64,000 nt of DNA from Narcine bancroftii (Eukaryota). Positions 7,690-39,500 of this stretch are shown in pieces. The stretch is taken from assembly GCF_036971445.1 (NCBI RefSeq), contig NC_091470.1, forward strand, positions 192,758,001 to 192,822,000, in the 5' to 3' direction. The notes beneath the pieces were generated by a model. It saw only the letters and a program-made list of their open reading frames with translations. It was not told the origin of the DNA and did not search any database. The position numbers were made by a program, and so were the translations under genes. Every line of letters starts with the position of its first letter. The first letter of the stretch is position 1.

Positions 7690-8249
7690 CTTCTTTCCAC
7701 CTTTATACTCACTTTTCTGTAACTTTTATTTCTGTGCCTTTGTGTTTTCCTTTGTTTTTCCCGACTTTTCTGGAGAGGGCTGGAGTTCACCGTCCGGCCA
7801 CTACTCCATCACGTGACTCCTCTCGGAATGTGATGTTTAATGGTGAAAGCGCAGATGAAATGTAGAGGAAGTTTAGGGACCACTTGCGCTGGGTTCAGGA
7901 TAGGTTTGACTCACTGGGACAAGGAAAAGATGGTAGAAAAGGGAACTGTGGCCAATGAAGCAGGTCAGGCATTTAGACAAGAGTAAGAAGGAAGTAAACA
8001 TTAGATATAGGAGACAGGAAGAGCTCATGAGAAGTGTCTGGTGGCCAGGAAGGAGCTTATGAAAGGACTTAGGGAGAGCTCGAAGGGGGCATGAGAAGAC
8101 CTTGGCCGGTAGAATTAAGGAGAACCTCAAGGTGTTCTATGCGTATGTGAAGAAGGATGATGAGAATGAAGGAGGGGTCACTAAAGGATAAAGGAGGCAA
8201 CGTGTTCCTGGAGGTTGAGGAGGTTCTAAATGAATACTTTGCATCAGTC

Positions 8250-12486: not shown

Positions 12487-12550
12487 TTATGTTGTCAGCC
12501 CATGGATTGGGACCCCCTCCAGTTCCTGCGCCTGTCGCAGTTCCTTCATC
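12487..12550 (-). CDS. CAMTA2: CAMTA2 terminal coding exon MKELRQAQELEGVPIHGLTT*
   Basis: tcttatctcttacag acceptor, phase 2 entry, TAA at 12489-12487; resembles the mammalian CAMTA2 end MRELKQNQELEGLPQPGLAT*. Confidence 0.92.
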
Positions 12551-15500
12551 CTGTAAGAGATAAGACAACACGAATGGACAGCGTCAATGTGTTTGGAACA
12601 CGTCCCCCAGTGAGGGTCAGTTCGTGGGACCCATCCCCAGTGAGGGTCAGCGTGTGGGACCCTTCCACTGAGGGTTAGCGTGCGAGACCTGTCCCCCGAG
12701 GGTTAGCGCGTGGGACCCGTTCCCCCAGTGAGAGTCAGTGTGTGTGGTACCTGACAATCTGAGGGTTAGCGTGGGGGTCCCGCCCCCAGGAGGGTGTGTG
12801 GAACCAATCCTCCAGAGGGTTAGAGTGTGGGACCCGTTCCCCAGTGAGGGTCAGTGTGTTTGAGACTTGACCCCTCGAGGGTTTGCGTGTGGGACCCAAC
12901 CCCTGAGGGTTAGCGTGTGGTACCCACCCGAGTGAGGATCAGTGTGTGTGTGCGACCCATCCCCCAGTGAGGGTCAGTATGTGTGCGGCCTGACCCCCCG
13001 AGAGTTAGCGTGTGGGATCCGACCACCCGAGTGTTAGCGTGTGGCTCCGATTACCCACAGGAGACCAGCCCCCGCGAGGGTTAGTGTGTGGGACCCGTCC
13101 CCAGTGAGGGTCAGTATGTGCGGGACCTGACCCCCCAAGGGTTAGTGTGTGGGACCCATTCCCCCCAGGAGACCAGTCACCCCGAGGGTTAGTGTGTGGG
13201 ACCCGTCCCCCAGTGAGAGTCAGTGTGTGTGGGACCTGTCCCCCAGTGAGGTTCAGTATGTGCGGGACCTGACCCCCCCCGAGGGTTAGTGTGTGGGACC
13301 CGTTCCCCCGAGGAGACCCATGCCCTCGAGGGTTAGTGCTTGGGACCTGTCCCCAGTGAAGATCAGCATGTGGGACCTGTCCCCCAGTAAGGTTCAGCGT
13401 GTGGGACCCGTACCCTGAGATTTAGCCCAAGGGTTAGCGTGTGGGATCCACCCGCCCGAGGGTTAGCGTGTGGCACCCATTACCCCCAGGAGACAGGCCC
13501 CCTGAGAGTTAGTGTGGAACCCGTCCCCCAGTGAGAATAAGTGTGTGTGGGACCTGTCCTCCTGTGAGGGTCAGTATGTGCGGGACCTGACCCCCCGAGG
13601 GTTAGTGTGTGGGACCCATTCCCCCGAGGAGACCCGTCCCCCCGAGGGTTAGTGCTTGGGACACGTCCCCCAGAGAGAGTCAACATGTGGGACCCGTCCC
13701 CCAGTGAGTCAGTGTGTGTGGGACCTATCCCCCAGTGAGGGTCAGTATGTGTGGGACCCGTACCCACGAGGGTTAGCGTGTGGGACCCATCCCCACCGAG
13801 GATTAGCGTGTGGGAGCCATTCGCACGAGGGTTTGCTTGTGGGATCTGTCCCCCCAAGGGTTCATGTGTTGGATCAGACCCCCCCGAGGGTTAGTGTGTG
13901 GGACCCGTTCCCCCGAGGAGACACGTCCCCCCGAGGGTTAGTGCTTGGGACACGTCCCCCAGAGAGAGTCAGCATGTGGGACCCGTCCCCCAGTGAGTCA
14001 GTGTGTGTGGGACCTATCCCCCAGTGAGGGTCAGTATGTGTGGGATCTGTCCCCCCCAAGGGTTCGTGTGTGGGACCTGTCCCCCCGAGGGTTAATGTGT
14101 GGGAACTGTTTCCCCAGTGAAGGTCAGCATGTGAGGGACCTGACCTCCTGAGGGTTAGCGTGTGGGGCCCTCCCCCGAGGGTTAGTGTGTGGGACCTGTT
14201 CCACAGTGAGGGTCAGCATGTGGAACTCGTCCCCTAGTGAGGGTCAGCGTGTGGGACTCGTACCCCGAGATTTAGCGTGTAGGACCCATCCCCTCAGAGG
14301 GTTAGTGTGTGGGACCTGTCCCCCAGTGATGGTCAGTATGTGTGGGACCCATCCCCCACGAGGGTTAGCGTGTAGGCCCCCCCCCCCGAGGGTTTGTGTG
14401 TGGGACCCATCCTCCCGAGTGTTAGTGTGGGATCCGTCCCCCAGTGAGGGTCAGCGGGTGGGACCCATCCCCACGAGTTTTAGTGGTTGGGACCCATCCC
14501 CCAGTGAGGGTCAGCGTGTTTTGGAATTGACCCCCCGAGAGATTGCGTGTGGGGACCCGCCCACCCAAGAGTTAGTGTGTGGGACCTGCCCCAAATGAGG
14601 GTCATTGTGTGTGGGACCCATCCCCCAGTGAGGGTCAGCGTGTGGGACCCATACCCCGAGATTAAGTGTGTGGGACCCATACACCCCGAGGATTAGCGTG
14701 TGGGACCCGTAACCAGTGAGATTCAGTGTGTGTGGGACCTGACCCTCTGAGGGTTAGCGTGAGGGACCCGTCCCCACGAGGGTGTGTGGGACCCATACTC
14801 CCGAGGGTTAGAGTGTGGGACCCGTTCCCCAGTGATGGTCAGTGTGTTTGAGACTTGACCCCCGAGGGTTTGCGTTTGGGACCCACCCCCCTGAGGGTTA
14901 GTGTATGGGACCCGACCCCAGTGAGGGTCAGTGTGTGTGTGCCAACTAAACGCCCCGAGAGTTAGCATGTGGGATCCGCCCCCCCAAGTGTTAGTGTATG
15001 GGACCCGTTCCCCCGAGGAGACCAGCCCCCCCAAGGTTTAGTGTGAGGGACCCGTCCCTCAGTGAGTCAGTGTGTGTGGGACCTATCCCCCAGTGAGGGT
15101 CAGTATGTGTGGGACCCGTACCCCCGAGGGTTAGCGTGTGGGACCCATCCCCTCCGAGGATTAGCGTGTGGGAGCCATTCGCACGAGGGTTAGCTTGTGG
15201 GATCTGTCCCCCCAAGGGTTCGTGTGTGGGACCTGACCCCCCGAGGGTTAGTGTGTGGGACCCGTTCCCCCGAGGAGACCCGTCCCCCCCGAGGGTTAGT
15301 GCTTGGGACACGTCCCCCAGAGTAGTCAGCATGTGGGACCTGTCCCCCAGTGAGTCAGTGTGTGTGGGACCTATCCCCCAGTGAGGGTCAGTATGTGTGG
15401 GATCTGTCCCCCCAAGGGTTCGTGTGTGGGACCTGTCCCCCCGAGGGTTAATGTGTGGGAACTGTCCCCCAGTGAAGGTCAGCATGTGAGGGACCTGACC

Positions 15501-18500: not shown

Positions 18501-21500
18501 ACTCGTTACCCGAGATTTAGCGTGTGGGACCCATCCCCTCTTGAGGTTAGCGTGTGAGACCCCGTCCCGCAGTGAGAGACAGTGTGTATGGGACATTACC
18601 CTCTGAGGGTTAGCGTGGGGACCCACCCACCCCCGAAAGTTAGTTTGTGGGACCTGCCCTCCAGTGAGGGTGAGTATATGTGGGATCAGACCCCCCGAGG
18701 GTTAGTGTGTGGGACCCGTCCCCCAGTGAGAGTCTGTGTGTGTTTGTGGGACGTGTCCCCCAGTGAGGGTCGGTATGTGCGGGACCTGACCCCCCGAGGG
18801 TTAGTGCTTGGGACCCATTCCCCAGTGAGGGTCAGTGTGTTTGGGACTTGTCGCCCCGAGGGTTTGCGTGTGGGTCCCACCCCCCTGAGGTTTAGTGTGT
18901 GGGACCCGCCCCCCAGTGAGGGTCAGTGTGTGTGGGACCCATCCCCCAGTGAGGGTCAGTAAGTGTGGGATTTGACCCCCCCGAGGGTTAGTGTGGGATC
19001 CGCCCTCCTGAGCATTAGCATGTGGCACCTATTACCCCCAGTAGACCACCCCCCCCCACCCCGAGGGTTAGTGTGTGGGACCCAACCCCCAGAGAGAGTC
19101 ATTGTGTGTGGGACCTGTCCCCCAGTGAGGGTCAGTATGTGCGGGACCTGACCCCCCGAGGGTTAAGTGTGGGACCGGTTTCCCTGAGTAGATTCGTCCT
19201 CCCGAGAGTTCTGCTTGGGACCCGTCCCCCAGTGAGTGTCAGCCTGTGGGACCTGACCCCATTGAGGGTCAGTTTCTGCGGGACCTGACCCCTTGAGAAT
19301 CAGTGTGTGGGTCACGTCCCCCCGAGGTTTAGTGCTTGGGACCCATCCCCCAGTGAGGGTCAGCATGAGCGACCCGTACCCCAAGAATTAGGGTGTGGGA
19401 CCCATCCACCCCAATGTTTAGCGTGTGCGAGCCATCCCCCCGAGGGTTAGGATGTGGGACCCGTCCCTCGACATTTAGTATGTGGGACCCATCCATCCTG
19501 AGGATTAGCGTGTGGGAACCATTCCCCAGTGAGTGTCAGTGAGTTTTGGACTTGACCCCTCCGAGGGTTTGCATGTGGGACCTGCCCCCCCAAGGATTAG
19601 TGTGTGGGACCTGCCCCCCCAGTGAGGGTCAGTATATGTGGGACCCATCCCCCCGAGGGTTAGTTCTTGGGACCCGTGCCCCAATGAGGGTCAGTGTGTG
19701 TGGGACCCGTCCCCCAGTGAGTGTCAGTATGTGCGGGACCTGACGCCCCGAGGGTTAGTGTGTGGGTCCCGCCCCCCCGATGGTTAGCATGTGGGACCCA
19801 TTCCCCCCAGGAGACCAGTCCCCCCGAGGGTCAGTGTGTGGGACCCGTCCCGCAGTGAGGGTCAGTAAGTGCGGGACCTGACCCGCCGAGGGTTAGTGTG
19901 TGGGACCTGTTCCCCCGAGGACACCCGTCCCCTCGATGGTTAGTGCTTGGGACCTGTCCCCCAGTGAAGGTCAGCATGTGAGACCCGTTCCCCAAAGAGG
20001 GTCAGTGTGTGGGACCCGTACCCTGAGATTTATCGTGTGGGACCCATCCCCCCAAGGGTTAGTACTTGGGACCCGTTCCCCAGTGAGGGTCAGCGTGTGG
20101 GACCTGTCACGAGGGTTAGCACGTGGGACTCGTCCCCCAAGAGTTAGCGTGTGGGACCCATCCACCCCGAGTGTTATCGTGTGGGACCTGTTCCCCGAGG
20201 GTTTGTGTGTGGGACCCGTCTCCCAGTGAGAGTCAGTGTGTTTGGGACATGACCCTCCAAGGGTTAGCGTGGGGGACCAGCTCCCCCCACCGATGGTTAG
20301 TGTGTGGACCCCATCCCCCCGAGGGTTAGTGCTTGGGACCCGTTCCCCAGTGAGGGTCAGTGTATTTGTGACTTGACCCCCCGAGGGTTAGTGTGTGGGA
20401 CCCGTTCCCCCGAGGAGACCCGTCCCCCTGAGGGTTAGTTCTTGGGACCTGTTCCCCGGTGAGGGTCAGTGTGTTTGGGACTTGACCCCCCGAGGGTTAG
20501 TGTGTGGGATCCGCCCCCCCGAGGGTTAGCGTGTGGCACCCATTACACCCCAGGAGACCAGCCCCCTCCAGGGTTAGTGTGTGGGACCCGTCCCCCAGTG
20601 AGAGTCAGTGTGTGTGGGACCTGTCTGCCAATGAGGGTCAGTATGTGCGGGACCTGACACCCCGAGGGTTAGTGTGTGGGACCCGTTCCCCCGAGGAGAC
20701 CCATCCCCCCCAAGGGTTTGTGTGTGGAACCCGTCCCCCAGTGAGAGATAGTGTGTGTGGAACCTGACTATCTAAGTGTTAGCGTGGGGGACCCGCCCTC
20801 CCGGTGGTTAGTTTGTGGGCCCCATCGTCCCGAGGGTTAGCATTTGGGACTCGTTCCCCAGTGAGGGTCAGTGTGTTTGGGACTTGACCCCTCGAGTGTT
20901 TGCATGTGGGACCCACCCCACCAAGGGTTAGTGTGTGGGATCTTCCCCCCAGGGAGGGTCAGTAAATGTGGGACCCATCTACCCCGAGGATTAGTGTGTG
21001 GGACCCGCCCTCTAGTGAGGGTCAGTGAATTTGGGACCCTTCCCCCAGTGAGGGTCAGAATGAGTGGGACCTGACCCCCCGAGGGTTAGCGTGTGGCACC
21101 CATTACCCCCAGGAGATCAGCCCCTCCAGAGTTAGTGTGTGGGACCCGTCCCCCAGTGAGAGTCAGTATGTGCGGGACCTGACCCCCCGAGGGTTAGGTG
21201 TGGGACCCGTTCCCACGAGGAGACCCGTCCCCCCGAGGGCTAGTGATTGGGACCCGTCCCCCAGTGAGGGTCAGCATGAGGGACCCGTCCCCCAGTGAGA
21301 GTCAGTGTGTGTGGGACCTATCCCCCAGTGAGTGTCAGTATGTGCGGGACCTGACGCCCCGAGGGTTAGTGTGTGGGTCCCGCCCCCCCGATGGTTAGCG
21401 TGTGGGACCCATTCCCCCCAGGAGACCAGTCCCCCCGAGGGTTAGTGTGTGGGACCCGTTCCACCGATGGTTAGTGGTTGGGACCCGTCCCCCAGTGAGG

Positions 21501-24500
21501 GTCAACGTGTGGGACCCGTCCCGCAGTGAGGGTCAGCATGAGGGACCCATCCCCTCGAGGGTTAGTGTGTGGGACCCGTCCCCCAGTGAGAGTCAGTGTG
21601 TGTGGGACCTGTCCCCCAGTGAGGGTCAGTATGTGCGGGACCTGACCCCCCGAGGGTTAGTGTGTGGGACCCGTTCCCCCGAGGAGACCCGTCCCCTCGA
21701 GGGTTAGTGCTTGGGACCTGTCACCCAGTGAAGGTCAGCATGTGGGACCCGTCCCCCAATGAGGGTCAGCGTGTGGGACCCATACCCTGATATTTAGCGT
21801 GTGAGACCCATCCACCCTGAGGGTTAGCGTGTGGGACACATCACCAGCGTGTGGGACCTGCCCCCCTGAGGGTTGGTGCATGGGACCCGCCCCCAGTGAG
21901 GAGCAGTGTGTGGGTCCCGTCCCCCAATGAGTGTCACCGTGTGGGATCCGTCACAAGGGTTAGCATGTGGGACTCGTCCTCCGAGAGTTGGCGTTTGGGA
22001 CGCATCCACCCCGCGGGTTATCGTGTGGGACCCGTTCCCCCGAGGAGACCCGTCTCCCCTAGGGTTTGTGTGTGGAACCCGTCCCCCAGTGAGAGATAGT
22101 GTGTGTGGGACCTGACTATCTGAGGGTTAGCGTGGGGGACCCGCCCCCCCGATGGTTAGTTTGTGGGCCCCATCGCCCCGAGGGTTAGCGTGTAGGACTC
22201 GTTCCCCAGTGAGGGTCAGTGTGTTTGGGACTTGACCCCTCGAGTGTTTGCATGTGGGACCCACCCCACCAAGGATTAGTGTGTGGGACCTGCCCCCCAG
22301 GGAGGGTCAGTAAATGTGGGACCCATCCACCCCGAGGATTAGTGTGTGGGAACCACCCTCTAGTGAGGGTCAGTGAATTTGGGAACCTTCCCCCAGTGAG
22401 GGTCAGAATGTGTGGGACCTGACCCCCCGAGGGTTAGTGTGTGGAATCTGCACCCCCGAGTGTTAGCGTGTGGCACCCATTACCGCCAGGAGACCAGCCC
22501 CCTCCAGGGTTAGTGTGTGGGACCCGTCCCCCATGATAGTCAGTGTGTGTGGGAGCTGACCCTCTGAGGGTTGGCGTGGGGGACCCGCCCCCTTCCCCCC
22601 CACCGAGGGTTAGTTTGTGGGTCCAATCCTCCCGAGGGTTAGTGTGTGGGACCCGTTACCCAGTGAGGGTCAGTATATTTGCGACCTGACCCCCCGAGGG
22701 TTAGCGTGTGGGACCTGCATCCCCGAGGGTTAGCGAGTGGGATCCATTCCCCCCAGGAGATCGGTCACTTGAGGGTCAGCGTGTGGGACCCGTCCCCCAG
22801 TGAGGGCCAGCGTGTGGGACCTGTACACTGAGATTTAGCATGTGAGACCCATCCACCCCGAGGGTTAGCGTGTGGGACCCGTTCCCCAGTGAGGGTCAGT
22901 ACATGTGGGGCCTGACCCCCCCCGAGGGTTAGCGTGTGGGACCCATTTCCCCCCAGGAGACCAGACCCCTGAGGGTTAGTGTGTGGGACCCGAACCCCAT
23001 TGAGAGTCAGTGTGTGTGGGACCTGTCCCCCAGTGAGGGTCAGCGTGTGGGACCCGTCACGAGTGTTAGCACGTGGGACTCGTCTCCCGAAAGTTAGCGT
23101 GTGGGACCCATCCACCCCGAGGGTTATCGTGTGGGACCTGTTCCCCGAATGAGGGTCAGCGTGTTTGGGACTTGACCCCCTGAGGGTTTGCGTGTGGGAC
23201 CCGCCCCCCACGAGGGTTAGCGTGTGGGACCCATTCCCCCCAGGAGACCAGTCCCCCCGAGTGTTATTGTGTGTGACCCGTCCCCCAGTGAGAGTCAGTG
23301 TGCATGGGACCTGACCCCCAGTGAGTGTCAGTAAGTGCGGGACTTGACCCCCCCCGAGGGTTAGCGTGTTGGACCCATCCCCTCTTAGGATTAGCGTGTG
23401 GTAGCCATTCGCACGAGGGTTTGCTTGTGGGATCTGTCTCCTCAAGGGTTAGTGTGTGGGACCTGTCCCCCCGAGGGTTAATGTGTGGGAACTGTCCCAC
23501 AGTGAAGGTCAGCATGTGAGGGACCTGACCTCCCGAGGGTTAGCGTGTGGGGCCCTCCCCCGAGGGTTAGTGTGTGGGACCTGTTCCACAGTGAGGGTCA
23601 GCATGTGGAACTCGTCCCCTAGTGAGGGTCAGCGTGTGGGACTCGTACCCCGAGATTTAGCGTGTGGGACCCATCCCCTCCGAGGGTTAGCGTGTGATAC
23701 CCATCCCCCAGTGAGAGACAGTGTGTATGGGACATTACCCTCTGAGGGTTAGCGTGGGGGACCCACCCACCCCCGAAGGTTAGTGTGTGGGACCTGTTCC
23801 CCAGTGATGATCAGTATGTGTGGGACCCATCCCCCACGAGGGTTAGCGTGTGGGACCCATCCTCCCGAGTGTTAGTGTGGGATCCGTCCCCCAGTGAGGG
23901 TCAGCGGGTGGGACACATCCCCCCGAGTTTAGTGGTTGGGACCCATCCCCCAGTGAGGGTCAGCGTGTTTGGGACTTGACCCCCCGAGAGTTTGCGTGTG
24001 TGACCCTCCCCCCAAAGAGTTAGTTGTGGGACCCGCCCCCAATGAGGGTCATTGTTTGTGGGACCCGTCCCCCAGTGAGGGTCAGTATATGTGGGACCTG
24101 ACCCCCCGAAGGTTAGCGTGTGCGACCCGTCCCCCAAGAGTTAGCGTTCCGGACCCATCCACCCCGAGGATTAGTGTGTGGGACCCGTTTCCCCGAGGAG
24201 ACCTGTCCCCCTGAGGGTTAGGATTGGGACCCGTACCTCGACATTTAGCATGTGGGACGCATCCATCCCGAGGATTAGCATGTGGGACCCATATCCCCGA
24301 GGAGACCCGTCTCCTGTGGGTTAGTGTGTGGGACCCGTCCCCCATGATAGTCAGTGTGTGTGGGAGCTGACCCTCTGAGGGTAGGCGTGGGGTCCCGCCC
24401 CCCCCCCCCCCCCACCGAGGGTTAGTTTGTGGGTCCCATCCTCCTGAGGGTTAGTGTGTGGGACCCGTTCCCCCGAGGAGACCCGTCCCCCTGAGGGTTA

Positions 24501-27500
24501 GTTCTTGGGACCTGTTCCCCGGTGAGGGTCAGTGTGTTTGGGACTTGACCCCCCGAGGGTTAGTGTGTGGGATCCGCCCCCCCGAGGGTTAGCGTGTGGC
24601 ACCCATTACACCCCAGGAGACCAGCCCCCTCCAGGGTTAGTGTGTGGGACCCGTCCCCCAGTGAGAGTCAGTGTGTGTGGGACCTGTCTGCCAATGAGGG
24701 TCAGTATGTGCGGGACCTGACACCCCGAGGGTTAGTGTGTGGGACCCGTTCCCCCGAGGAGACCCATCCCCCCCAAGGGTTTGTGTGTGGAACCCGTCCC
24801 CCAGTGAGAGATAGTGTGTGTGGAACCTGACTATCTAAGTGTTAGCGTGGGGGACCCGCCCTCCCGGTGGTTAGTTTGTGGGCCCCATCGTCCCGAGGGT
24901 TAGCATTTGGGACTCGTTCCCCAGTGAGGGTCAGTGTGTTTGGGACTTGACCCCTCGAGTGTTTGCATGTGGGACCCACCCCACCAAGGGTTAGTGTGTG
25001 GGATCTGCCCCCCAGGGAGGGTCAGTAAATGTGGGACCCATCTACCCCGAGGATTAGTGTGTGGGACCCGCACTCTAGTGAGGGTCAGTGAATTTGGGAC
25101 CCTTCCCCCAGTGAGGGTCAGAATGAGTGGGACCTGACCCCCCGAGGGTTAGCGTGTGGCACCCATTACCCCCAGGAGATCAGCCCCTCCAGAGTTAGTG
25201 TGTGGGACCCGTCCCCCAGTGAGAGTCAGTATGTGCGGGACCTGACCCCCCGAGGGTTAGGTGTGGGACCCGTTCCCACGAGGAGACCCGTCCCCCCGAG
25301 GGCTAGTGATTGGGACCCGTCCCCCAGTGAGGGTCAGCATGAGGGACCCGTCCCCCAGTGAGAGTCAGTGTGTGTGGGACCTATCCCCCAGTGAGTGTCA
25401 GTATGTGCGGGACCTGACGCCCCGAGGGTTAGTGTGTGGGTCCCGCCCCCCCGATGGTTAGCGTGTGGGACCCATTCCCCCCAGGAGACCAGTCCCCCCG
25501 AGGGTTAGTGTGTGGGACCCGTTCCACCGATGGTTAGTGGTTGGGACCCGTCCCCCAGTGAGGGTCAACGTGTGGGACCCGTCCCGCAGTGAGGGTCAGC
25601 ATGAGGGACCCATCCCCTCGAGGGTTAGTGTGTGGGACCCGTCCCCCAGTGAGAGTCAGTGTGTGTGGGACCTGTCCCCCAGTGAGGGTCAGTATGTGCG
25701 GGACCTGACCCCCCGAGGGTTAGTGTGTGGGACCCGTTCCCCCGAGGAGACCCGTCCCCTCGAGGGTTAGTGCTTGGGACCTGTCACCCAGTGAAGGTCA
25801 GCATGTGGGACCCGTCCCCCAATGAGGGTCAGCGTGTGGGACCCATACCCTGATATTTAGCGTGTGAGACCCATCCACCCTGAGGGTTAGCGTGTGGGAC
25901 ACATCACCAGCGTGTGGGACCTGCCCCCCTGAGGGTTGGTGCATGGGACCCGCCCCCAGTGAGGAGCAGTGTGTGGGTCCCGTCCCCCAATGAGTGTCAC
26001 CGTGTGGGATCCGTCACAAGGGTTAGCATGTGGGACTCGTCCTCCGAGAGTTGGCGTTTGGGACGCATCCACCCCGCGGGTTATCGTGTGGGACCCGTTC
26101 CCCCGAGGAGACCCGTCTCCCCTAGGGTTTGTGTGTGGAACCCGTCCCCCAGTGAGAGATAGTGTGTGTGGGACCTGACTATCTGAGGGTTAGCGTGGGG
26201 GACCCGCCCCCCCGATGGTTAGTTTGTGGGCCCCATCGCCCCGAGGGTTAGCGTGTAGGACTCGTTCCCCAGTGAGGGTCAGTGTGTTTGGGACTTGACC
26301 CCTCGAGTGTTTGCATGTGGGACCCACCCCACCAAGGATTAGTGTGTGGGACCTGCCCCCCAGGGAGGGTCAGTAAATGTGGGACCCATCCACCCCGAGG
26401 ATTAGTGTGTGGGAACCACCCTCTAGTGAGGGTCAGTGAATTTGGGAACCTTCCCCCAGTGAGGGTCAGAATGTGTGGGACCTGACCCCCCGAGGGTTAG
26501 TGTGTGGAATCTGCACCCCCGAGTGTTAGCGTGTGGCACCCATTACCGCCAGGAGACCAGCCCCCTCCAGGGTTAGTGTGTGGGACCCGTCCCCCATGAT
26601 AGTCAGTGTGTGTGGGAGCTGACCCTCTGAGGGTTGGCGTGGGGGACCCGCCCCCTTCCCCCCCACCGAGGGTTAGTTTGTGGGTCCAATCCTCCCGAGG
26701 GTTAGTGTGTGGGACCCGTTACCCAGTGAGGGTCAGTATATTTGCGACCTGACCCCCCGAGGGTTAGCGTGTGGGACCTGCATCCCCGAGGGTTAGCGAG
26801 TGGGATCCATTCCCCCCAGGAGATCGGTCACTTGAGGGTCAGCGTGTGGGACCCGTCCCCCAGTGAGGGCCAGCGTGTGGGACCTGTACACTGAGATTTA
26901 GCATGTGAGACCCATCCACCCCGAGGGTTAGCGTGTGGGACCCGTTCCCCAGTGAGGGTCAGTACATGTGGGGCCTGACCCCCCCCGAGGGTTAGCGTGT
27001 GGGACCCATTTCCCCCCAGGAGACCAGACCCCTGAGGGTTAGTGTGTGGGACCCGAACCCCATTGAGAGTCAGTGTGTGTGGGACCTGTCCCCCAGTGAG
27101 GGTCAGCGTGTGGGACCCGTCACGAGTGTTAGCACGTGGGACTCGTCTCCCGAAAGTTAGCGTGTGGGACCCATCCACCCCGAGGGTTATCGTGTGGGAC
27201 CTGTTCCCCGAATGAGGGTCAGCGTGTTTGGGACTTGACCCCCTGAGGGTTTGCGTGTGGGACCCGCCCCCCACGAGGGTTAGCGTGTGGGACCCATTCC
27301 CCCCAGGAGACCAGTCCCCCCGAGTGTTATTGTGTGTGACCCGTCCCCCAGTGAGAGTCAGTGTGCATGGGACCTGACCCCCAGTGAGTGTCAGTAAGTG
27401 CGGGACTTGACCCCCCCGAGGGTTAGCGTGTTGGACCCATCCCCTCTTAGGATTAGCGTGTGGTAGCCATTCGCACGAGGGTTAGCTTGTGGGATCTGTC

Positions 27501-30500
27501 TCCTCAAGGGTTAGTGTGTGGGACCTGTCCCCCCGAGGGTTAATGTGTGGGAACTGTCCCACAGTGAAGGTCAGCATGTGAGGGACCTGACCTCCCGAGG
27601 GTTAGCGTGTGGGGCCCTCCCCCGAGGGTTAGTGTGTGGGACCTGTTCCACAGTGAGGGTCAGCATGTGGAACTCGTCCCCTAGTGAGGGTCAGCGTGTG
27701 GGACTCGTACCCCGAGATTTAGCGTGTGGGACCCATCCCCTCCGAGGGTTAGCGTGTGATACCCATCCCCCAGTGAGAGACAGTGTGTATGGGACATTAC
27801 CCTCTGAGGGTTAGCGTGGGGGACCCACCCACCCCCGAAGGTTAGTGTGTGGGACCTGTTCCCCAGTGATGATCAGTATGTGTGGGACCCATCCCCCACG
27901 AGGGTCAGCGTGTGGGACCCATCCTCCCGAGTGTTAGTGTGGGATCCGTCCCCCAGTGAGGGTCAGCGGGTGGGACACATCCCCCCGAGTTTAGTGGTTG
28001 GGACCCATCCCCCAGTGAGGGTCAGCGTGTTTTGAACTTGACCCCCCGAGAGTTTGCGTGTGTGACCCTCCCCCCAAAGAGTTAGTTGTGGGACCCGCCC
28101 CCAATGAGGGTCATTGTTTGTGGGACCCGTCCCCCAGTGAGGGTCAGTATATGTGGGACCTGACCCCCCGAAGGTTAGCGTGTGCGACCCGTCCCCCAAG
28201 AGTTAGCGTTCCGGACCCATCCACCCCGAGGATTAGTGTGTGGGACCCGTTTCCCCGAGGAGACCTGTCCCCCTGAGGGTTAGGATTGGGACCCGTACCT
28301 CGACATTTAGCATGTGGGATGCATCCATCCCGAGGATTAGCATGTGGGACCCGTATCCCCGAGGAGACCCGTCTCCTGTGGGTTAGTGTGTGGGACCCGT
28401 CCCCCATGATAGTCAGTGTGTGTGGGAGCTGACCCTCTGAGGGTTGGCGTGGGGTCCCGCCCCCCCCCCCCCACCGAGGGTTAGTTTGTGGGTCCCATCC
28501 TCCTGAGGGTTAGTGTGTGGGACCCGTTACCCAGTGAGGGTCAGTATATTTGCGACCTGACCCCCCGAGGGTTAGCGTGTGGGACCTGCATCCCCGAGGG
28601 TTAGCGAGTGGGATCCATTCCCCCCAGGAGATCGGTCACCTGAGGGTCAGCGTGTGGGACCCGTCCCCCAGTGAAGGCCCCAGCGTGTGGGACCTGTACA
28701 CTGAGATTTAGCGTGTGAGACCCATCCACCCTGAGGGTTAGCGTGTGGAACCCATCCCCAGCGTGTGGGACATGTCCCCCCGAGGGTTAGTGCTTGGGAA
28801 CCCCCCCAGAGAGGGTCAGTGTGTGGGACCCGTCCTCCAATGAGGGTCAGCGTGTGGGACCCGTCACAAGGGTTAGCATGTGGGACTCGTCCCCCGAGAG
28901 TTATCGTGTGGGACCCGTTCCCCCGAGGAGACCCGTCCCCCCGAGGGTTTATGTGTGGGACCCGTCCCCCAGTAAGAGTCAGTGTGTGTGGGACCTGACC
29001 CTTCGAGGGTTAGCGTGGGTGACCAGCACCCCCCGATGGTTAGTGTGTGGGCCCCATCCCCCCGAGGGTTAGCGTGTGGGACCCGTTCCCCAGTGAGGGT
29101 CAGTACATGTGGGACCTGAACCCCCCGAGGGTTAGTGTGTGGGACCCGACCCCCCGAGGGTTAGCGTGTGGGACCCATTTCCCCCCAGGAGACCAGACCC
29201 CTGAGGGTTAGTGTGTGGGACCCGAACCCCATTGAGAGTCAGTGTGTGTGGGACCTGTCCCCCAGTGAGGGTCAGCGTATGGGACCCGTCACGAGTGTTA
29301 GCACGGGGGACTCGTCTCCCGAAAGTTAGCTTGTGGGACCCATCCACCCCGAGGGTTATCATGTGGGACCTGTTCCCCGAATGAGGGTCAGCGTGTTTGG
29401 GACTTGACCCCCTGAGGGTTTGCGTGTGGGACCCGCCCCCCCGAGGGTTAGCGTGTGGGACCCATTCCCCCCAGGAGACCAGTCCCCCCGAGGGTTATTG
29501 TGTGTGACCCGTCCACCAGTGAGAGTCAGTGTGCGTGCGACCTGTCCCCCAGTGAGTGTCAGTAAGTGCGGGACCTGACCCCCCCCGAGGGTTAGCGTGT
29601 GGGACCCATCCCCTCCGAGGATTAGCGTGTGGTAGCCATTCGCACGAGGGTTAGCTTGTGGGATCTGTCCCCCCAAGGGTTAGTGTGTGGGACCTGTCCC
29701 CCCGAGGGTTAATGTGTGGGAACTGTCCCCCAGTGAAGGTCAGCATGTGAGGGACCTGACCTCCCGAGGGTTAGCGTGTGGGGCCCTCCCCCGAGGGTTA
29801 GTGTGTGGGACCTGTTCCACAGTGAGGGTCAGCATGTGGAACTCGTCCCCTAGTGAGGGTCAGCGTGTGGGACTCGTACCCCGAGATTTAGCGTGTGGGA
29901 CCCATCCCCTCCGAGGGTTAGCGTGTGAGACCCGTCCCCCATTGAGAGACAGTGTGTATGGGACATTACCCTCTGAGGGTTAGCATGGGGGACCCACCCC
30001 CCCGATGGTTAGTTTGTGGGCCCCATCGCCCCGAGGGTTAGCGTGTGGGACCCGTTCCCCAGTGAGTGTCAGTGTGTTTGGGACTTGACCCCTCGAGGGT
30101 TTGCATGTGGGACCTGCCCCACCAAGGGTTAGTGTGTGGGACCTGCCCCACCAGGGAGGGTAAGTAAATGTGGGACCCGTCCCCCCGAGGGTTAGTGCTT
30201 GGGACCCGTCCCCCAATGAGGGTCAGCGTGTTTGGGACTTGACCACCCGAGGGTTTGCGTGTGGGACCTGCCCCCCCGAGGGTTAGCGTGTGGGACACAT
30301 TCCCCCCAGGAGACCAGTCCCCCTGAGGGTTAGTGTGTGGTACCCGTCCACCAAGGAGACCCGTCCCCTCGATGGTTAGTGCTTGGGACCCGTCCCCCAG
30401 TGAAGGTCAGCATGTGGGACCCGTTCTCCAGTGAGGGTCAGCATGTGGGACCCGTACCCTGAGATTTATCGTGTGGGACCCATCCACCCCGAGTGTTAGT

Positions 30501-33500
30501 GTGTGGGACCCGTCCCCAGCGTGTGGGACCGGTCTCCCCGAGGGTTAGTGCTTGGGTCCCGTCCCCGAGTGAGGGTCAGCGTGTGGGACCCGTCACGAGG
30601 GTTAGCATATGGGACTCGTCTCCCGAAAGTTAGCGTGTGGGACCCATCCACCCCGAGGGTTATCGTGTGGGACCCGTTCCCCCGAGGAGACCCGTCCCCC
30701 CGAGGGTTTGTGTGTGGGACCCGCTCCCCATTGAGAGTCAGTGTGTGTGGGACCTGACCCTCTGAGGGTTAGCGTGGGGGACCCGCTCCCCCCCCCGATG
30801 GTTAGTGTATGGACCCCATCCCCCCGTGGGTTAGTGCTGGGGATCCGTTCCCCAGTGTGGGTCAGTGTGTTTGTGACTTGACCCCCCCCCGAGGATTAGT
30901 GTGTGGGACCCGTTCCCCCCAGGAGACCCATCCCCCCGAGGGTTAGTGCTTGGGACCGGTTCCCCAGTGAGGGTCAGTGAGTTTGGGACTTGACACCCCC
31001 AAGGGTTTACGTGTGGGACCCACCCCCCTGAGGTTTAGTGTGTGGGACCTGCCCCCCAGTGAGGGTCAGTTAGTGTGGGACCTGTCTCCCGGTGAGGGTC
31101 AGTATGTGTGGGACCTGACCACCCCCCGAGGGTTAGTTTGTGGGATCCACCTCCCTGAGGGTTAGCGTGTGGGATCCGCCCCCCCCCCGAGGGTTAGCGT
31201 GTGGCACCCATTACCCCCAGGAGACCAGCACCCCCAAGGGTTAGTGTGTTGGATCCGTCCCCCAGTGAGAGTCAGTATGTGTGGGACATGACCCTCTGAG
31301 GGTTGCCATGGGGGACCCCCCCCCCCCCCCGACCCCACCCCGACGGTTAGTTTGTTAGTCCCATCCCCCGGAGGGTTAGTCTGTGAGACCCATTCCCCAG
31401 TGAGGGTCAGTGTGATTGGGACCTGACCCCCCGAGGGTTTGCGTGTGTGACCCGCCCCCCAAGAGTTAGTTGTGGGACCCGCCCCCAATGAGGGTCATTG
31501 TTTGTGGGACCCGTCCCCCGTGATAGTCAGTGTGTGTGGGAGCTGACCCTCTGAGGGTTGGCGTGGGGGACCCGTTACCCAGTGAGGGTCAGTATATTTG
31601 GGACCTGACTCCCCGAGGGTTAGCGAGTGGGACCCATTCCCCCCAGGAGATTGGTCACCTGAGGGTCAGTGTGTGGGACCCGTCCCCCAGTGAGGGCCAG
31701 CGTGTGGGACCTGTACACTGAGATTTAGCGAGTGAGACCCATACACCCCGAGGGTTAGCGTGTGGGTCCCATCCCCAGCGTGTGGGACACGTCCCCCCGA
31801 GGGTTAGTGCTTGGGACCCCCCCCCCAGAGAGGGTCAGTGTGTGGAACCCGTCCCCCAATGAGGGTCAGCGTGTGGGACCCGTCTCGAGGGTTAGCATGT
31901 GGGACTCGTCCCCCGAGAGTTATCGTGTGGGACCCGTTCCCCCGAGGAGACCCGTCCCCCCGAGGATTTGTGTGTGGGACCCGTCCCCCAGTAAGAGTCA
32001 ATGTGTGTGGGACCTGACCCTTTGAGGGTTAGCGTGGGTGACCAGCCCCCCACCGATGGTTAGTGTGTGGGCCCCATCCCCCCGAGGGTTAACGTGTGGG
32101 ACCCGTTCCTCAGTGAGAGTCAGTTTGTTTGGGAATAGACCCCCCGAGGGTTTGCATGTGGGACCCACCCACCCCCCGAGCGTTAGTGTGTGGGACCTGC
32201 CCCCCAGTGAGGGTCATTACATGTGGGACCTGACCCCCCGAGGGTTAGCGTGTGGGACCCGCCCCCCCAAGAGTTAGCGTGTGGGACCCATTTCCCCCCA
32301 GACCAGTCCCCCTGAGGCTTATTGTGTGGGACCCGAACCCCATTGAGAGTCAGTGTGTGTGGGACCTGTCCCCCAGTGAGGGTCAGTGTGTATGTCCTGA
32401 CCCCTTGAGGGTTCGCTTGTGAGACACGTCCACCAGTGAGGGTCTGTGTGTGGGACCCATCCCCTGAAGGGTTAGTGTGTGAGACCCGCCCCCCGAGGGT
32501 TAGTGTGTGACACCCGTCCCCCCCGAGGGTCAGTGTGTGGGACCCATCCCCCAGTGAGGGTCAGTGTGTGTGGGACCTGCCCCCCCGAGGGTCAGCGTGT
32601 GGGTCCCGTCCCCCAGTGAGGGTGTGTGTGTGGGCCCTGACCCCCGGAAGGTTAGCTTGGAGACACGTCCCCCAGTGGTCAGTTTGTGGGACCGCCCCCC
32701 CCGAGGATTAGTGTGTGAGACCCGTCCCCCCAAGGGTTAGTGTGTGAGACCTGTTCTGCCCGAGGCTCAGTGTGTGGCACCTGTTCCCCAGTGATGATCA
32801 GTATGTGTGGGACCCATCCCCCACGAGGGTCAGCGTGTGGGACCCATCCTCCCGAGTGTTAGTGTGGGATCCGTCCCCCAGTGAGGGTCAGCGGGTGGGA
32901 CACATCCCCCCGAGTTTAGTGGTTGGGACCCATCCCCCAGTGAGGGTCAGCGTGTTTGGAACTTGACCCCCCGAGAGTTTGCGTGTGTGACCCTCCCCCC
33001 AAAGAGTTAGTTGTGGGACCCGCCCCCAATGAGGGTCATTGTTTGTGGGACCCGTCCCCCAGTGAGGGTCAGTATATGTGGGACCTGACCCCCCGAAGGT
33101 TAGCGTGTGCGACCCGTCCCCCAAGAGTTAGCGTTCCGGACCCATCCACCCCGAGGATTAGTGTGTGGGACCCGTTTCCCCGAGGAGACCTGTCCCCCTG
33201 AGGGTTAGGATTGGGACCCGTACCTCGACATTTAGCATGTGGGATGCATCCATCCCGAGGATTAGCATGTGGGACCCGTATCCCCGAGGAGACCCGTCTC
33301 CTGTGGGTTAGTGTGTGGGACCCGTCCCCCATGATAGTCAGTGTGTGTGGGAGCTGACCCTCTGAGGGTTGGCGTGGGGTCCCGCCCCCCCCCCCCCCCC
33401 ACCGAGGGTTAGTTTGTGGGTCCCATCCTCCTGAGGGTTAGTGTGTGGGACCCGTTACCCAGTGAGGGTCAGTATATTTGCGACCTGACCCCCCGAGGGT

Positions 33501-36500
33501 TAGCGTGTGGGACCTGCATCCCCGAGGGTTAGCGAGTGGGATCCATTCCCCCCAGGAGATCGGTCACCTGAGGGTCAGCGTGTGGGACCCGTCCCCCAGT
33601 GAAGGCCCCAGCGTGTGGGACCTGTACACTGAGATTTAGCGTGTGAGACCCATCCACCCCGAGGGTTAGCGTGTGGAACCCATCCCCAGCGTGTGGGACA
33701 TGTCCCCCCGAGGGTTAGTGCTTGGGAACCCCCCCAGAGAGGGTCAGTGTGTGGGACCCGTCCTCCAATGAGGGTCAGCGTGTGGGACCCGTCACAAGGG
33801 TTAGCATGTGGGACTCGTCCCCCGAGAGTTATCGTGTGGGACCTGTTCCCCCGAGGAGACCCGTCCCCCCGAGGGTTTATGTGTGGGACCCGTCCCCCAG
33901 TAAGAGTCAGTGTGTGTGGGACCTGACCCTTCGAGGGTTAGCGTGGGTGACCAGCACCCCCCGATGGTTAGTGTGTGGGCCCCATCCCCCCGAGGGTTAG
34001 CGTGTGGGACCCGTTCCCCAGTGAGGGTCAGTACATGTGGGACCTGAACCCCCCGAGGGTTAGTGTGTGGGACCCGACCCCCCGAGGGTTAGCGTGTGGG
34101 ACCCATTTCCCCCCAGGAGACCAGACCCCTGAGGGTTAGTGTGTGGGACCCGAACCCCATTGAGAGTCAGTGTGTGTGGGACCTGTCCCCCAGTGAGGGT
34201 CAGCGTATGGGACCCGTCACGAGTGTTAGCACGGGGGACTCGTCTCCCGAAAGTTAGCTTGTGGGACCCATCCACCCCGAGGGTTATCATGTGGGACCTG
34301 TTCCCCGAATGAGGGTCAGCGTGTTTGGGACTTGACCCCCTGAGGGTTTGCGTGTGGGACCCGCCCCCCCGAGGGTTAGCGTGTGGGACCCATTCCCCCC
34401 AGGAGACCAGTCCCCCCGAGGGTTATTGTGTGTGACCCGTCCACCAGTGAGAGTCAGTGTGCGTGCGACCTGTCCCCCAGTGAGTGTCAGTAAGTGCGGG
34501 ACCTGACCCCCCCCGAGGGTTAGCGTGTGGGACCCATCCCCTCCGAGGATTAGCGTGTGGTAGCCATTCGCACGAGGGTTAGCTTGTGGGATCTGTCCCC
34601 CCAAGGGTTAGTGTGTGGGACCTGTCCCCCCGAGGGTTAATGTGTGGGAACTGTCCCCCAGTGAAGGTCAGCATGTGAGGGACCTGACCTCCCGAGGGTT
34701 AGCGTGTGGGGCCCTCCCCCGAGGGTTAGTGTGTGGGACCTGTTCCACAGTGAGGGTCAGCATGTGGAACTCGTCCCCTAGTGAGGGTCAGCGTGTGGGA
34801 CTCGTACCCCGAGATTTAGCGTGTGGGACCCATCCCCTCCGAGGGTTAGCGTGTGAGACCCGTCCCCCATTGAGAGACAGTGTGTATGGGACATTACCCT
34901 CTGAGGGTTAGCATGGGGGACCCACCCCCCCGATGGTTAGTTTGTGGGCCCCATCGCCCCGAGGGTTAGCGTGTGGGACCCGTTCCCCAGTGAGTGTCAG
35001 TGTGTTTGGGACTTGACCCCTCGAGGGTTTGCATGTGGGACCTGCCCCACCAAGGGTTAGTGTGTGGGACCTGCCCCACCAGGGAGGGTAAGTAAATGTG
35101 GGACCCGTCCCCCCGAGGGTTAGTGCTTGGGACCCGTCCCCCAATGAGGGTCAGCGTGTTTGGGACTTGACCACCCGAGGGTTTGCGTGTGGGACCTGCC
35201 CCCCCGAGGGTTAGCGTGTGGGACACATTCCCCCCAGGAGACCAGTCCCCCTGAGGGTTAGTGTGTGGTACCCGTCCACCAAGGAGACCCGTCCCCTCGA
35301 TGGTTAGTGCTTGGGACCCGTCCCCCAGTGAAGGTCAGCATGTGGGACCCGTTCTCCAGTGAGGGTCAGCATGTGGGACCCGTACCCTGAGATTTATCGT
35401 GTGGGACCCATCCACCCCGAGTGTTAGTGTGTGGGACCCGTCCCCAGCGTGTGGGACCGGTCTCCCCGAGGGTTAGTGCTTGGGTCCCGTCCCCGAGTGA
35501 GGGTCAGCGTGTGGGACCCGTCACGAGGGTTAGCATATGGGACTCGTCTCCCGAAAGTTAGCGTGTGGGACCCATCCACCCCGAGGGTTATCGTGTGGGA
35601 CCCGTTCCCCCGAGGAGACCCGTCCCCCCGAGGGTTTGTGTGTGGGACCCGCTCCCCATTGAGAGTCAGTGTGTGTGGGACCTGACCCTCTGAGGGTTAG
35701 CGTGGGGGACCCGCTCCCCCCCCCGATGGTTAGTGTATGGACCCCATCCCCCCGTGGGTTAGTGCTGGGGATCCGTTCCCCAGTGTGGGTCAGTGTGTTT
35801 GTGACTTGACCCCCCCCCAAGGATTAGTGTGTGGGACCCGTTCCCCCCAGGAGACCCATCCCCCCGAGGGTTAGTGCTTGGGACCGGTTCCCCAGTGAGG
35901 GTCAGTGAGTTTGGGACTTGACACCCCCAAGGGTTTACGTGTGGGACCCACCCCCCTGAGGTTTAGTGTGTGGGACCTGCCCCCCAGTGAGGGTCAGTTA
36001 GTGTGGGACCTGTCTCCCGGTGAGGGTCAGTATGTGTGGGACCTGACCACCCCCCGAGGGTTAGTTTGTGGGATCCACCTCCCTGAGGGTTAGCGTGTGG
36101 GATCCGCCCCCCCCCGAGGGTTAGCGTGTGGCACCCATTACCCCCAGGAGACCAGCACCCCCAAGGGTTAGTGTGTTGGATCCGTCCCCCAGTGAGAGTC
36201 AGTGTGTGTGGGACATGACCCTCTGAGGGTTGCCATGGGGGACCCCCCCCCCCCCCGACCCCACCCCGACGGTTAGTTTGTTAGTCCCATCCCCCGGAGG
36301 GTTAGTCTGTGAGACCCATTCCCCAGTGAGGGTCAGTGTGATTGGGACCTGACCCCCCGAGGGTTTGCGTGTGTGACCCGCCCCCCAAGAGTTAGTTGTG
36401 GGACCCGCCCCCAATGAGGGTCATTGTTTGTGGGACCCGTCCCCCGTGATAGTCAGTGTGTGTGGGAGCTGACCCTCTGAGGGTTGGCGTGGGGGACCCG

Positions 36501-39500
36501 TTACCCAGTGAGGGTCAGTATATTTGGGACCTGACTCCCCGAGGGTTAGCGAGTGGGACCCATTCCCCCCAGGAGATTGGTCACCTGAGGGTCAGTGTGT
36601 GGGACCCGTCCCCCAGTGAGGGCCAGCGTGTGGGACCTGTACACTGAGATTTAGCGAGTGAGACCCATACACCCCGAGGGTTAGCGTGTGGGTCCCATCC
36701 CCAGCGTGTGGGACACGTCCCCCCGAGGGTTAGTGCTTGGGACCCCCCCCCCCAGAGAGGGTCAGTGTGTGGAACCCGTCCCCCAATGAGGGTCAGCGTG
36801 TGGGACCCGTCTCGAGGGTTAGCATGTGGGACTCGTCCCCCGAGAGTTATCGTGTGGGACCCGTTCCCCCGAGGAGACCCGTCCCCCCGAGGATTTGTGT
36901 GTGGGACCCGTCCCCCAGTAAGAGTCAGTGTGTGTGGGACCTGACCCTTTGAGGGTTAGCGTGGGTGACCAGCCCCCCACCGATGGTTAGTGTGTGGGCC
37001 CCATCCCCCCGAGGGTTAACGTGTGGGACCCGTTCCTCAGTGAGAGTCAGTTTGTTTGGGAATAGACCCCCCGAGGGTTTGCATGTGGGACCCACCCACC
37101 CCCCGAGCGTTAGTGTGTGGGACCTGCCCCCCAGTGAGGGTCATTACATGTGGGACCTGACCCCCCGAGGGTTAGCGTGTGGGACCCGCCCCCCCAAGAG
37201 TTAGCGTGTGGGACCCATTTCCCCCCAGACCAGTCCCCCTGAGGCTTATTGTGTGGGACCCGAACCCCATTGAGAGTCAGTGTGTGTGGGACCTGTCCCC
37301 CAGTGAGGGTCAGTGTGTATGTCCTGACCCCTTGAGGGTTCGCTTGTGAGACACGTCCACCAGTGAGGGTCTGTGTGTGGGACCCATCCCCTGAAGGGTT
37401 AGTGTGTGAGACCCGCCCCCCGAGGGTTAGTGTGTGACACCCGTCCCCCCCGAGGGTCAGTGTGTGGGACCCATCCCCCAGTGAGGGTCAGTGTGTGTGG
37501 GACCTGCCCCCCCGAGGGTCCCCCAGTGAGGGTGTGTGTGTGGGCCCTGACCCCCGGAAGGTTAGCTTGGAGACACGTCCCCCAGTGGTCAGTTTGTGGG
37601 ACCGCCCCCCCCGAGGATTAGTGTGTGAGACCCGTCCCCCCAAGGGTTAGTGTGTGAGACCTGTTCTGCCCGAGGCTCAGTGTGTGGCACCTGTCCCCCA
37701 GTGAGGGTCAGTGTGTGTGGGACCAGCCCCCTTCAGGGTCAGCGTGTGGGAACCGCCCCCCCACCCCCGAGGGTCCCCGACTCTGGAGGGCCGGTTCCCT
37801 ACCTATGCCGGCAGCGCCTCAGGAACCTCATGATCTTACGAGCCGCCTGGTCCTGCCGCTTGGTGAGGAACGATGCCCTGGAACAACACGAGGTCTTCAG
37901 TCCAGCCCGTATCCCCCCTCATTTCGCTGGCCCACCCCTCCCTCCCTCCACCTGCAGACGTCCCGCTGCAATGCAGCCACCAGTGGCCTCCCTACCCCCC
38001 TGCTTCACTCACTTCATCTGTTGGAGTGGCCCACCGCCGCGGTGGGCCTGCTTCAGCTTTTCATACTCCTTATAGCTGCGGTAACACTGCTGGATGAGTA
38101 CTGCGGCTCGCCGGCTCTGCTGAAACCGCTTCTGCTCGTAGTAGCTGCGGAACTTGCTCTGGATCAGGATGGCAGCCTGGGTCATCTTCTTGTACAGGGC
38201 ATACTGAAAAGAGAAACACACATTAGCCGCCAGTGCTCCATCCCACCTGCGTCCCTTGTAGCCACGAGGCAGCCTAGAATCCCATTGACCCACAGCTGAG
38301 AGTTGCGGTCAGGATCACAGCAGTTACGGAATTATGCTATTATTAATCTTTGTTATATTATATTTTAGAGAGGTAACTTGTGGGTGGGAAACACACACAA
38401 GGACACACACATACAGAGAGACACAGAACGCCATTTTGAAGAGACAGAGTGAATCCTATGACCAGCTGTAAACAGAGCCATAAAATTAGAGTTGATTATT
38501 CCATTGAAATACTGAAGACCATGAATGTTTACTCGGGAAGATATCTGGGCAAACAGAAAGCCATTTGCTTCATGAAGTGCTTTCAGGAGAAATGAAACTT
38601 GAAACAGAGCCTGTCATTATGTCATGTCATGTGATTATGACACAAGAAAGTATCTTTCATATGATCAACCAGTTTCATTGGAGGTCAGAAATGCAGTATC
38701 AGTCTGTGAGAAAGGTCTGCCATTGTGTTATCAAGGGAGGAACACAGGATCGGAAAAGATGGCCATGTCGACTGTCTTTCTTTGTTGAATGATAGCATTG
38801 CTACTGGGGCCATGGTAATGGTCATTTCGTTAAAAACCCTTGCCTGGGTTTGTGAAATCAAGTTCCATAACCTCCGTGGAAGAGAGAGGAACTGTGAAAA
38901 AAAATTCATTCGTATGAAGAAACATTTCTCTGAAAGCAACTCTACAAGAACCTGTGAGTTTTGAGAAGTCTGACAACTTAGGGCCTCACCTGCTTCATAA
39001 TTACTTTAAAGAACCCGAGTTTCAACACAAAAGATTTCTGAGAGGGATCTTTGAAATTGACTTTTCAGGATCATGCCTGAACTGTAGTGGTTAGGGATAC
39101 ACCATATGCACACACAAATGTATATATTTGTGCATAGTTAGTTTAAATGTAGCATTAAGTGAAAAATATATTATTATTAGTTTAAATAAACATTGTTTTG
39201 AAGATACCATTGTCTTAATGAATTTCTATTTCTGCTGATCTATGTCATAACAACTGTCCTCTTCTGTACACCTCAATGTGACTGTGCACCCATTCCTGAT
39301 GGACTGGTTACTCCAACCTTGCATCAACTCCCTTCTTACCTATCTCCTTACAGATCCTACCTCCCTCAACCCCCAAAGACCAAGACACCGTTTCTGAACC
39401 AGATAACCTCCCCGTCTCCCTCAATGCCCAACGACCAACACACCTCGTCCAAACCAGATAGAGAACCTCCATGTCTCCCTCAACACCCAATGACCAACAC

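Follow-up and report, generated by a model that had tools for sequence, protein, structure and literature searches.

A dispersed 33-bp minisatellite in the last intron of a CAMTA2-like gene of the ray Narcine bancroftii, with a probable branch point in its terminal copy

Relation to described repeat-filled introns

Intronic minisatellites of the variable number tandem repeat (VNTR) type are known to touch splice signals. In the 37-bp repeat of F7 intron 7 (IVS7), the authentic splice signal lies in the edge monomer, with silent inner copies (PMC1557585); the 25-bp repeat of ABCA7 (PMC10078293) and the 38-bp VNTR6-1 of TERT (PMC11830802) are further cases, as the cited passages describe them. 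We analyzed a 64,000-nt stretch of the 3.33-Gb genome of Narcine bancroftii (contig NC_091470.1, positions 192,758,001 to 192,822,000; hereafter the window), in which the final intron of a minus-strand CAMTA2-like gene consists almost wholly of a tandem array. Like the three VNTRs, this array consists of a 25–40-bp tandem unit within an intron, and it belongs to the same kind of splice-touching minisatellite. It is closest to F7 IVS7, with which it shares an edge monomer holding a splice signal, here a candidate one, and inner copies that are likely silent. Unlike in the F7 repeat as described there, the signal is a likely branch point rather than a donor, and the array is 25 kb long, makes up more than 99% of its intron, and is a member of a multi-chromosome family. 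The reading that we favor, with a probability of roughly 70%, is that a dispersed, GC-rich, 33-bp minisatellite sits as a passenger in the CAMTA2 intron and that its last copy would act as a borrowed branch point. The look-alike motifs of the inner copies most likely do not form a protein sponge but came about as a harmless side effect.

Other described systems resemble the locus in part. Gomafu/MIAT also carries many branch-point-like heptamers on one RNA and was proposed to compete for SF1, but the cited account presents it as a stable, exonic, nuclear long noncoding RNA with a few perfect UACUAAC copies kept from chicken to human, whereas the CAMTA2 repeats lie in an intron with one UACUAAC and no tandem series of perfect heptamers (PMC3116199). 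In RAI14 intron 10, QKI and SF1 are reported to compete at ACUAA branch sites, and ACUGAC is a usable branch site; tandem ACUAAC motifs are common to both introns, but those of RAI14 lie about 60 nt or less from the acceptor, whereas the nearest ACTAAY in CAMTA2 lies at 535 nt and the candidate branch point has a UGAC-type sequence (PMC13004596). Drosophila Y-loop genes likewise have introns consisting almost wholly of transcribed tandem repeats; these are described as simple repeats of megabase size that have their own RNA-binding proteins in spermatocytes (PMC6508621), whereas the CAMTA2 array is a 25-kb minisatellite. The locus also resembles the repeat-rich segments of elasmobranch genomes, with their high GC content, many simple tandem repeats and gene density, although the cited parts of those accounts give bulk repeat content and not the CAMTA2 family, its short-intron setting or the branch-point overlap (PMC10620051, 10.1101/2025.06.08.657570). 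No account of the 33-bp family was found in the literature searched, which comprised main texts; supplementary repeat libraries may list the unit.

An intron with a likely repeat-derived branch point is a natural case in which the spliceosome would need to choose one branch point among about 560 look-alikes. The array would suit a reporter test of the pyrimidine tract and AG, rather than the branch motif, as what defines the 3' splice site.

The last intron and its candidate branch point

Minus-strand exons of the host gene matched IQ and, weakly, ankyrin domains, and one exon was 100% identical to P0001, a CAMTA2-like protein of N. bancroftii. Protein comparison placed the penultimate exon at 37803..37877 (minus strand), where it reads ...DQAARKIMRFLRRCRH and ends at the donor, and the coding part of the last exon at 12487..12550 (minus strand), where it reads MKELRQAQELEGVPIHGLTT followed by a stop codon. 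Joining the donor GT at 37802 to the acceptor AG at 12551 yielded ...RRCRHR|MKELRQAQELEGVPIHGLTT*, the final 22 residues of P0001. A similar C-terminus was present in 16 of the 25 proteins compared, which came from sharks, rays, and up to amphibians and a snake; the remaining nine were CAMTA1 forms, partial models, or proteins with other endings. The boundaries of this GT-AG, phase 2 intron of 25,252 nt (12551..37802, minus strand) are thus supported by protein conservation. Four probable RNA runs from the same organism shared 0.49 of the words of a stretch covering exon and intron, a figure that carries no weight as evidence of splicing.

The array comprises about 750 monomers of 29, 31, or 33 bp with the core CACRCTRACCCTC and spans about 12579..37799 (minus strand), leaving only about 31 nt of the intron non-repeat-like. 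A preliminary description of the window had placed it at 12583..37775; the array is real and its true span slightly wider. Its organization, a GC-rich short unit repeated head-to-tail inside an intron, is that of a VNTR-type intronic minisatellite. Among 752 cores, 406 were of a TAA variant and 251 of the family-type TGA. The TGA monomers resembled the 33-bp family unit, and the TAA monomers mostly lacked the ACT after the core, 367 of the 406 running directly into a G-run. CACTAAC and CACTGAC together made up 225 of 759 cores, and CGCTAAC (115), TACTGAC (50), and CGCTGAC (48) were also common; the single perfect TACTAAC in the 25-kb intron compares with a shuffle mean of 1.9. An Rfam search of 10000-37790 returned no matches, and two stretches folded no better than their shuffles (z of 0.55 and -0.99).

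The two main motifs of the preliminary description, CACUAAC and CACUGAC on the transcribed strand, were borne out by counts. The sense strand of the intron contained 141 CACTAAC, 86 CACTGAC, 188 ACTAAY, and 559 YNYTRAY, against 0, 0, 0, and 6 on the antisense strand and means of 6.7, 9.1, 17.2, and 65 in 50 dinucleotide shuffles. The CA repeats reported around the cores were likewise present, albeit short: 248 runs reached (CA)3 or more, 76 reached (CA)4 or more, and the longest was (CA)5. The sense excess that the proposed per-strand count was meant to reveal therefore exists, but at the level of the array it says little, because any amplified unit containing a motif repeats it. To test for meaning, we therefore turned from array-level shuffles to a null at the level of the monomer and to a comparison with other repeat families. 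YNYTRAY occurred in 7% of shuffled monomers on one strand and in 14% on either; among 18 other repeat families in the fetched loci, counted on either strand, YNYTRAY was found in 2, CTRAY in 4, and ACTAAY in 1.

We then examined the 3' end of the intron. Its non-repeat part (12551..12578, minus strand) consists of a U-rich pyrimidine tract and the acceptor AG, with an acceptor score of 7.9 in a rough heuristic matrix that was used for acceptors and donors alike. No YTRAY is present within the 28 non-repeat nt preceding the AG. The AG-free zone of 111 nt contains two candidates, CATTGAC (12583..12589, minus strand; A at 12584, position -34, 33 nt before the last intron base) and AACTGAC (12616..12622, minus strand; A at 12617, position -67), the latter predicted to be mostly paired. 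CATTGAC is the best YURAY between -18 and -40 and aligns in register with the CACTGAC of family monomers, which upholds the earlier placement of the candidate CAUUGAC in a terminal degenerate monomer. It thus combines the sequence features of a repeat-supplied branch point: position, monomer register, and location in the AG-free zone. Since only 28 non-repeat nt precede the AG, U2 would pair on the terminal monomer, and this decayed copy likely serves as the branch point of the last CAMTA2 intron.

The inner copies offer little that resembles a 3' splice site. The best of 629 inner AGs scored 2.9, only 5 of 1,172 inner GTs scored 3 or more, and none reached 4. As had been suggested for the inner units, the array contains no polypyrimidine tract, the pyrimidine runs on its sense strand all being shorter than 9 nt. 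The inner copies are therefore likely ignored, for want of a pyrimidine tract and an acceptor.

Repeats of an unrelated 52-bp family take up the end of a different CAMTA2 intron (window 44917-45377). The last, decayed monomer there contains TCTAAC, whose A (44944) stands at position -28 from the acceptor of that intron; in genes of known strand the family was oriented forward in 10 cases and in reverse in 4. As this repeat likewise ends near acceptors, arrays appear to grow until they meet splice signals and sometimes to take over the branch point. In another gene, a repeat did arise from the splice site itself: at L086:2700-3300 (G000:C11, minus strand), the last intron of a SWEET (MtN3_slv) gene closes with more than 10 tandem copies of a unit that includes the 3' splice site together with the opening bases of the exon, and the open last exon comes after the final copy.

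A dispersed family and the growth of its arrays

To place the CAMTA2 array in its family, we located related arrays by exact patterns of 20–29 nt. One 21-mer had 433 exact matches, of which 100 were listed, and exact matches to the patterns together fell on at least 16 numbered contigs (12 large and 4 small), later contigs being incompletely sampled. The flanks of 75 sites were read and searched for heuristic candidate exons, and 102 and then 28 peptides were scanned against Pfam. By this procedure, 30 sites were firmly intronic, 14 probably so, 3 non-intronic, and 28 unplaced. The firm sites, a few of which rest on a single located flanking splice site, comprised 20 sense stretches in 17 genes and 10 antisense stretches in 10 genes; an array on C29 that ends at an assembly gap was excluded from this tally.

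The preliminary description had looked to strand bias across other arrays of the family to decide on a function. The orientation we found, 17 genes with the motif on the sense strand and 10 with it on the antisense strand, is compatible with random (binomial p = 0.25), as are the tallies restricted to Pfam-supported genes (14 to 7, p = 0.19) and including probable sites (25 to 16, p = 0.21). The Pfam families of the sense hosts were Band_7, ArfGap, P5-ATPase, G6PD_C, FCH, PTEN_C2, HTH_TANC1, FH2, Serpin, Guanylate_cyc, Ras, Pacs-1, IQ, and RhoGAP, and those of the antisense hosts COLFI, WH1, Carb_anhydrase, SAM_PNT, WD40_Gbeta, Cation_ATPase_C, and FragX_IP; host gene names that go beyond these families are presumed from the peptides. 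The arrays lay mostly in otherwise very short introns, with a median non-repeat remainder of 128 nt in 21 introns that were selected toward short, a setting that bears on how elasmobranch introns lengthen. At two loci (L040 and L042), arrays in both directions stood within 2 kb of each other. An array of 27 monomers (L044:4586-5463), with the motif strand as the sense strand, lay between the stop codon and the AATAAA of an Elongator (Elong_Iki1) gene, likely in its 3' untranslated region.

Large arrays were also found outside sense introns. An antisense array of 11.3 kb ends 34 nt before the acceptor of an ETS (SAM_PNT) gene, the upstream donor of which was not located. An intergenic array of about 46 kb (G000:C11:185248300-185296400) lies between the SWEET (MtN3_slv) gene and a DPM3-like gene that are arranged tail-to-tail, beginning about 90 nt past the likely poly(A) signal of the former. 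These two arrays indicate that giant size needs neither an intron nor the sense strand. A decayed, 72%-identical duplicate of part of the SWEET last intron, its last exon, and its 3' end was present on another contig (L093:1677-4000; G000:C8). The repeat there moved with the segmental duplication, and it has only 12 monomers and 0.5 kb, which suggests that array size is a local accident. The array on C29 (G000:C29:973754-997619) is about 24 kb long and starts at a CpG-rich stretch. Past the gap at which it ends lie exons that we take to be RhoGAP-like, which had no Pfam match.

The CAMTA2 array bears the marks of the block duplication or unequal exchange by which VNTR-type minisatellites grow. 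A 4,063-bp block within it is tandemly duplicated at 99.6% identity (20377..28532) and a 4,932-bp block at 97.3% (27507..37751), and, with smaller blocks counted in, duplicates at least 95% identical take up 69% of the array; the 99.6% pair might also stem from an assembly or haplotype artefact. At either end of the array, the three outermost cores are of the family-type TGA, with TAA in the interior. Taken together, a small seed array would have sat in a short CAMTA2 intron and probably grew to 25 kb by unequal exchange. A local variant, in which TGA changed to TAA and the ACT after the core was lost, would have arisen inside the array and multiplied with it, leaving about 200 ACUAA motifs as a by-product, and growth would have stopped at the splice signals, where 28 non-repeat nt were left before the AG.

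Comparison of the duplicates revealed no extra conservation of core bases within the array. The four core positions were changed in 20 of 1,307 cases versus 183 of 9,646 elsewhere (p = 0.44), and in a column-matched test, the core T(-2) and the branch A were substituted in 4 of 656 cases versus 9 of 934 in other consensus A/T columns (p = 0.58). The antisense array of the ETS gene lacks recent internal duplicates, leaving no duplicate-based control possible there.

The ACUAA variant and alternative explanations

Several observations weigh against a purely passive array. ACTRAC occurred in only 1.6% of shuffled monomers on one strand and 2.2% on either, and the lean of about 2:1 toward the motif-sense strand in every tally leaves the sample compatible with a real bias. 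ACUAA is nearly confined to the CAMTA2 array, the one large array surely transcribed on the motif strand: TAA cores made up 406 of 752 there (54%), against 27 of 797 in the intergenic array, 7 of 309 in the antisense array, 3 of 490 in the C29 array, and 45 of 1,443 in 78 small arrays. This exclusivity counts as n = 1, because the variant is one amplified event. Local folding predicted ACUAA to be exposed, with a mean chance of being fully unpaired of 0.47 versus 0.09 for ACUGAC. The last 535 nt of the intron are free of ACTAAY, whereas among 187 inner gaps a single one is as long as 500 nt; six further inner gaps measure 452–473 nt, and the terminal gap was noticed post hoc. Finally, a base-stratified test found fewer substitutions in the core (4 of 642 versus 113 of 3,502; p = 4e-5); we set it aside because its control counts derived A/T alleles.

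The sense lean may be real and reflect avoidance, in that the G-rich strand has more donor-like sites and C-rich tracts before AG, and antisense arrays would be purged somewhat more. The antisense strand of the CAMTA2 array indeed exceeds the sense strand in donor-like GTs scoring 2 or more (278 versus 38), in GTRAG (232 versus 0), and in pyrimidine runs of 9 nt or more (45 versus 0), and the 52-bp family leans the same way (10:4). Against this stand the lack of significance of the lean itself and the tolerance of arrays of 11, 2.1, 1.6, and 1.3 kb in antisense orientation. We regard such avoidance as possible but doubtful; it is compatible with a passenger minisatellite that lends its last copy to splicing.

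The preliminary description had further proposed that the array may have grown from a branch-point-containing unit. On this view, the monomer would have been born from the CAMTA2 branch-point region by tandem duplication, and the family would have dispersed from this intron or from others with similar ends. In its favor, the one good branch candidate shares its register with the terminal core, only about 31 nt of the intron are non-repeat-like, and arrays are concentrated in very short introns. The birthplace, however, can be only one of 75 or more sites, and TAA cores amount to about 3% in other arrays versus 54% here. Acceptors were located in 18 other sense introns, two of which (L068 and L090) had a repeat core within 50 nt of the AG; 16 had none there, their arrays ending 43–297 nt short of the acceptor. 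Moreover, ten host genes have antisense copies, and the distance from array end to acceptor was similar for antisense and sense arrays (medians of 48 and 77 nt; p = 0.52). We therefore consider this origin unsupported and unlikely and prefer that a member of a dispersed family reached the splice signals by growth.

The array might instead be a QKI/SF1 platform: roughly 200 exposed ACUAA sites of the nascent or excised intron would tether STAR proteins, either at the locus or in foci, and tune splicing in cis or in trans, as proposed for Gomafu/MIAT. The array contains 201 ACUAA, 169 of them CACUAA, and local folding gave 98 of the 201 a chance above 0.5 of being unpaired, so that single-stranded NACUAA is present by prediction; the branch A was predicted unpaired with a chance of 0.36 in ACUGAC and 0.86 in ACUAAC. 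ACTAAY reaches 7.5 per kb in the array versus 0.28 in 456 kb of masked flanks. In the cited passages, QKI binds NACUAA with little preference for the first base, a CACUAA site in another RNA was bound in vitro at 24.5 nM (PMC2905418), and ACUGAC is a poor QKI site (PMC13004596). The genome has a STAR_dimer gene, and the TAA variant is nearly private to the CAMTA2 array. QKI would likely bind the ACUAA array in vitro, and on the reading that we favor, the nascent RNA may transiently carry QKI, SF1, or hnRNP L, which would serve no selected function.

A selected function of the ACUAA sites is not indicated. A UAAY half-site was found within 20 nt of only 12 of 188 ACTAAY cores, although 85 had one within 25 nt and 103 within 30 nt; the optimal half-site spacing reported for GLD-1 is 6–12 nt, longer spacings being untested in that account (PMC2905418). 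The array holds a single TACTAAC, whereas SF1 binding to Gomafu is reported to have fallen when UACUAAC was changed to a weaker branch consensus (PMC3116199). The 188 sites would equal those of about 670 kb of ordinary flank, a tiny share of intronic sites unless the RNA were stable. The cores show no purifying selection, Rfam gave no match, the TAA variant traces to one event, and no link of QKI to CAMTA2 was found in the literature searched. The sponge or focus suggested in the preliminary description thus finds no support, as orientation is compatible with random, antisense and intergenic arrays exist, and the cores are not specially conserved; we judge such a platform quite unlikely. If it were true, the array would be a non-pathological repeat RNA titrating a splicing regulator, with array length as the dial. 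It is likewise quite improbable, in our estimate, that a single monomer mutation, amplified about 400-fold, turned a passenger into an array of roughly 200 QKI sites, exposed and set away from the branch point, and hence into a length-tunable QKI/SF1 scaffold and a healthy counterpart of repeat-expansion RNA, with ray minisatellites that overrun very short introns repeatedly taking over branch points.

The preliminary description had also noted CAG|GU about 15 nt after CUAAC in many monomers. CAGGT indeed followed within 40 nt in 79 of 327 CTAAC (65 of them at 15 nt) and in 53 of 228 CTGAC (40 of them at 17 nt). The segment from the core to the CAG is CCCUC plus a G-run, and the 13 nt preceding inner CAGs averaged 46% pyrimidine and 15% U, compared with a pyrimidine content of 85% at the real acceptor. 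A ratchet point has an AG followed by a donor consensus (PMC8605326). That the CUAAC...CAG|GU units are such points, by which the 25-kb intron would be removed stepwise in recursive splicing, is hardly credible: the sense strand carries 171 CAGGT versus 30 in shuffles, many of them 15–17 nt past a branch-like A, but G-runs rather than pyrimidine tracts precede the inner CAGs and, in keeping with the low scores of inner GTs, the GU reads GUCCCA in 119 of the 171, which is no donor consensus, so that the inner sites fail on both sides of the AG.

Some tandem repeat was present in most introns of the CAMTA2-like gene. A 44-bp family occurs in both directions (window 46395-48270 and 58069-58500) and has the words CACTGGGG and GGGGACGGGTC in common with the 33-bp unit; the two families are perhaps related. 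The window also contains an 18-bp pyrimidine-rich array of 74 copies (42479-43807) and a 62-bp array of 25 copies (59487-61007). A 21-nt microexon with good splice sites (window 40648-40668, minus strand) encodes LTWIALK, a peptide also present in the shark protein P0006, and is likely alternatively spliced. Downstream of the gene (window 5400-7800), a long open frame with an A-rich tail resembled, by eye, a truncated long interspersed nuclear element.

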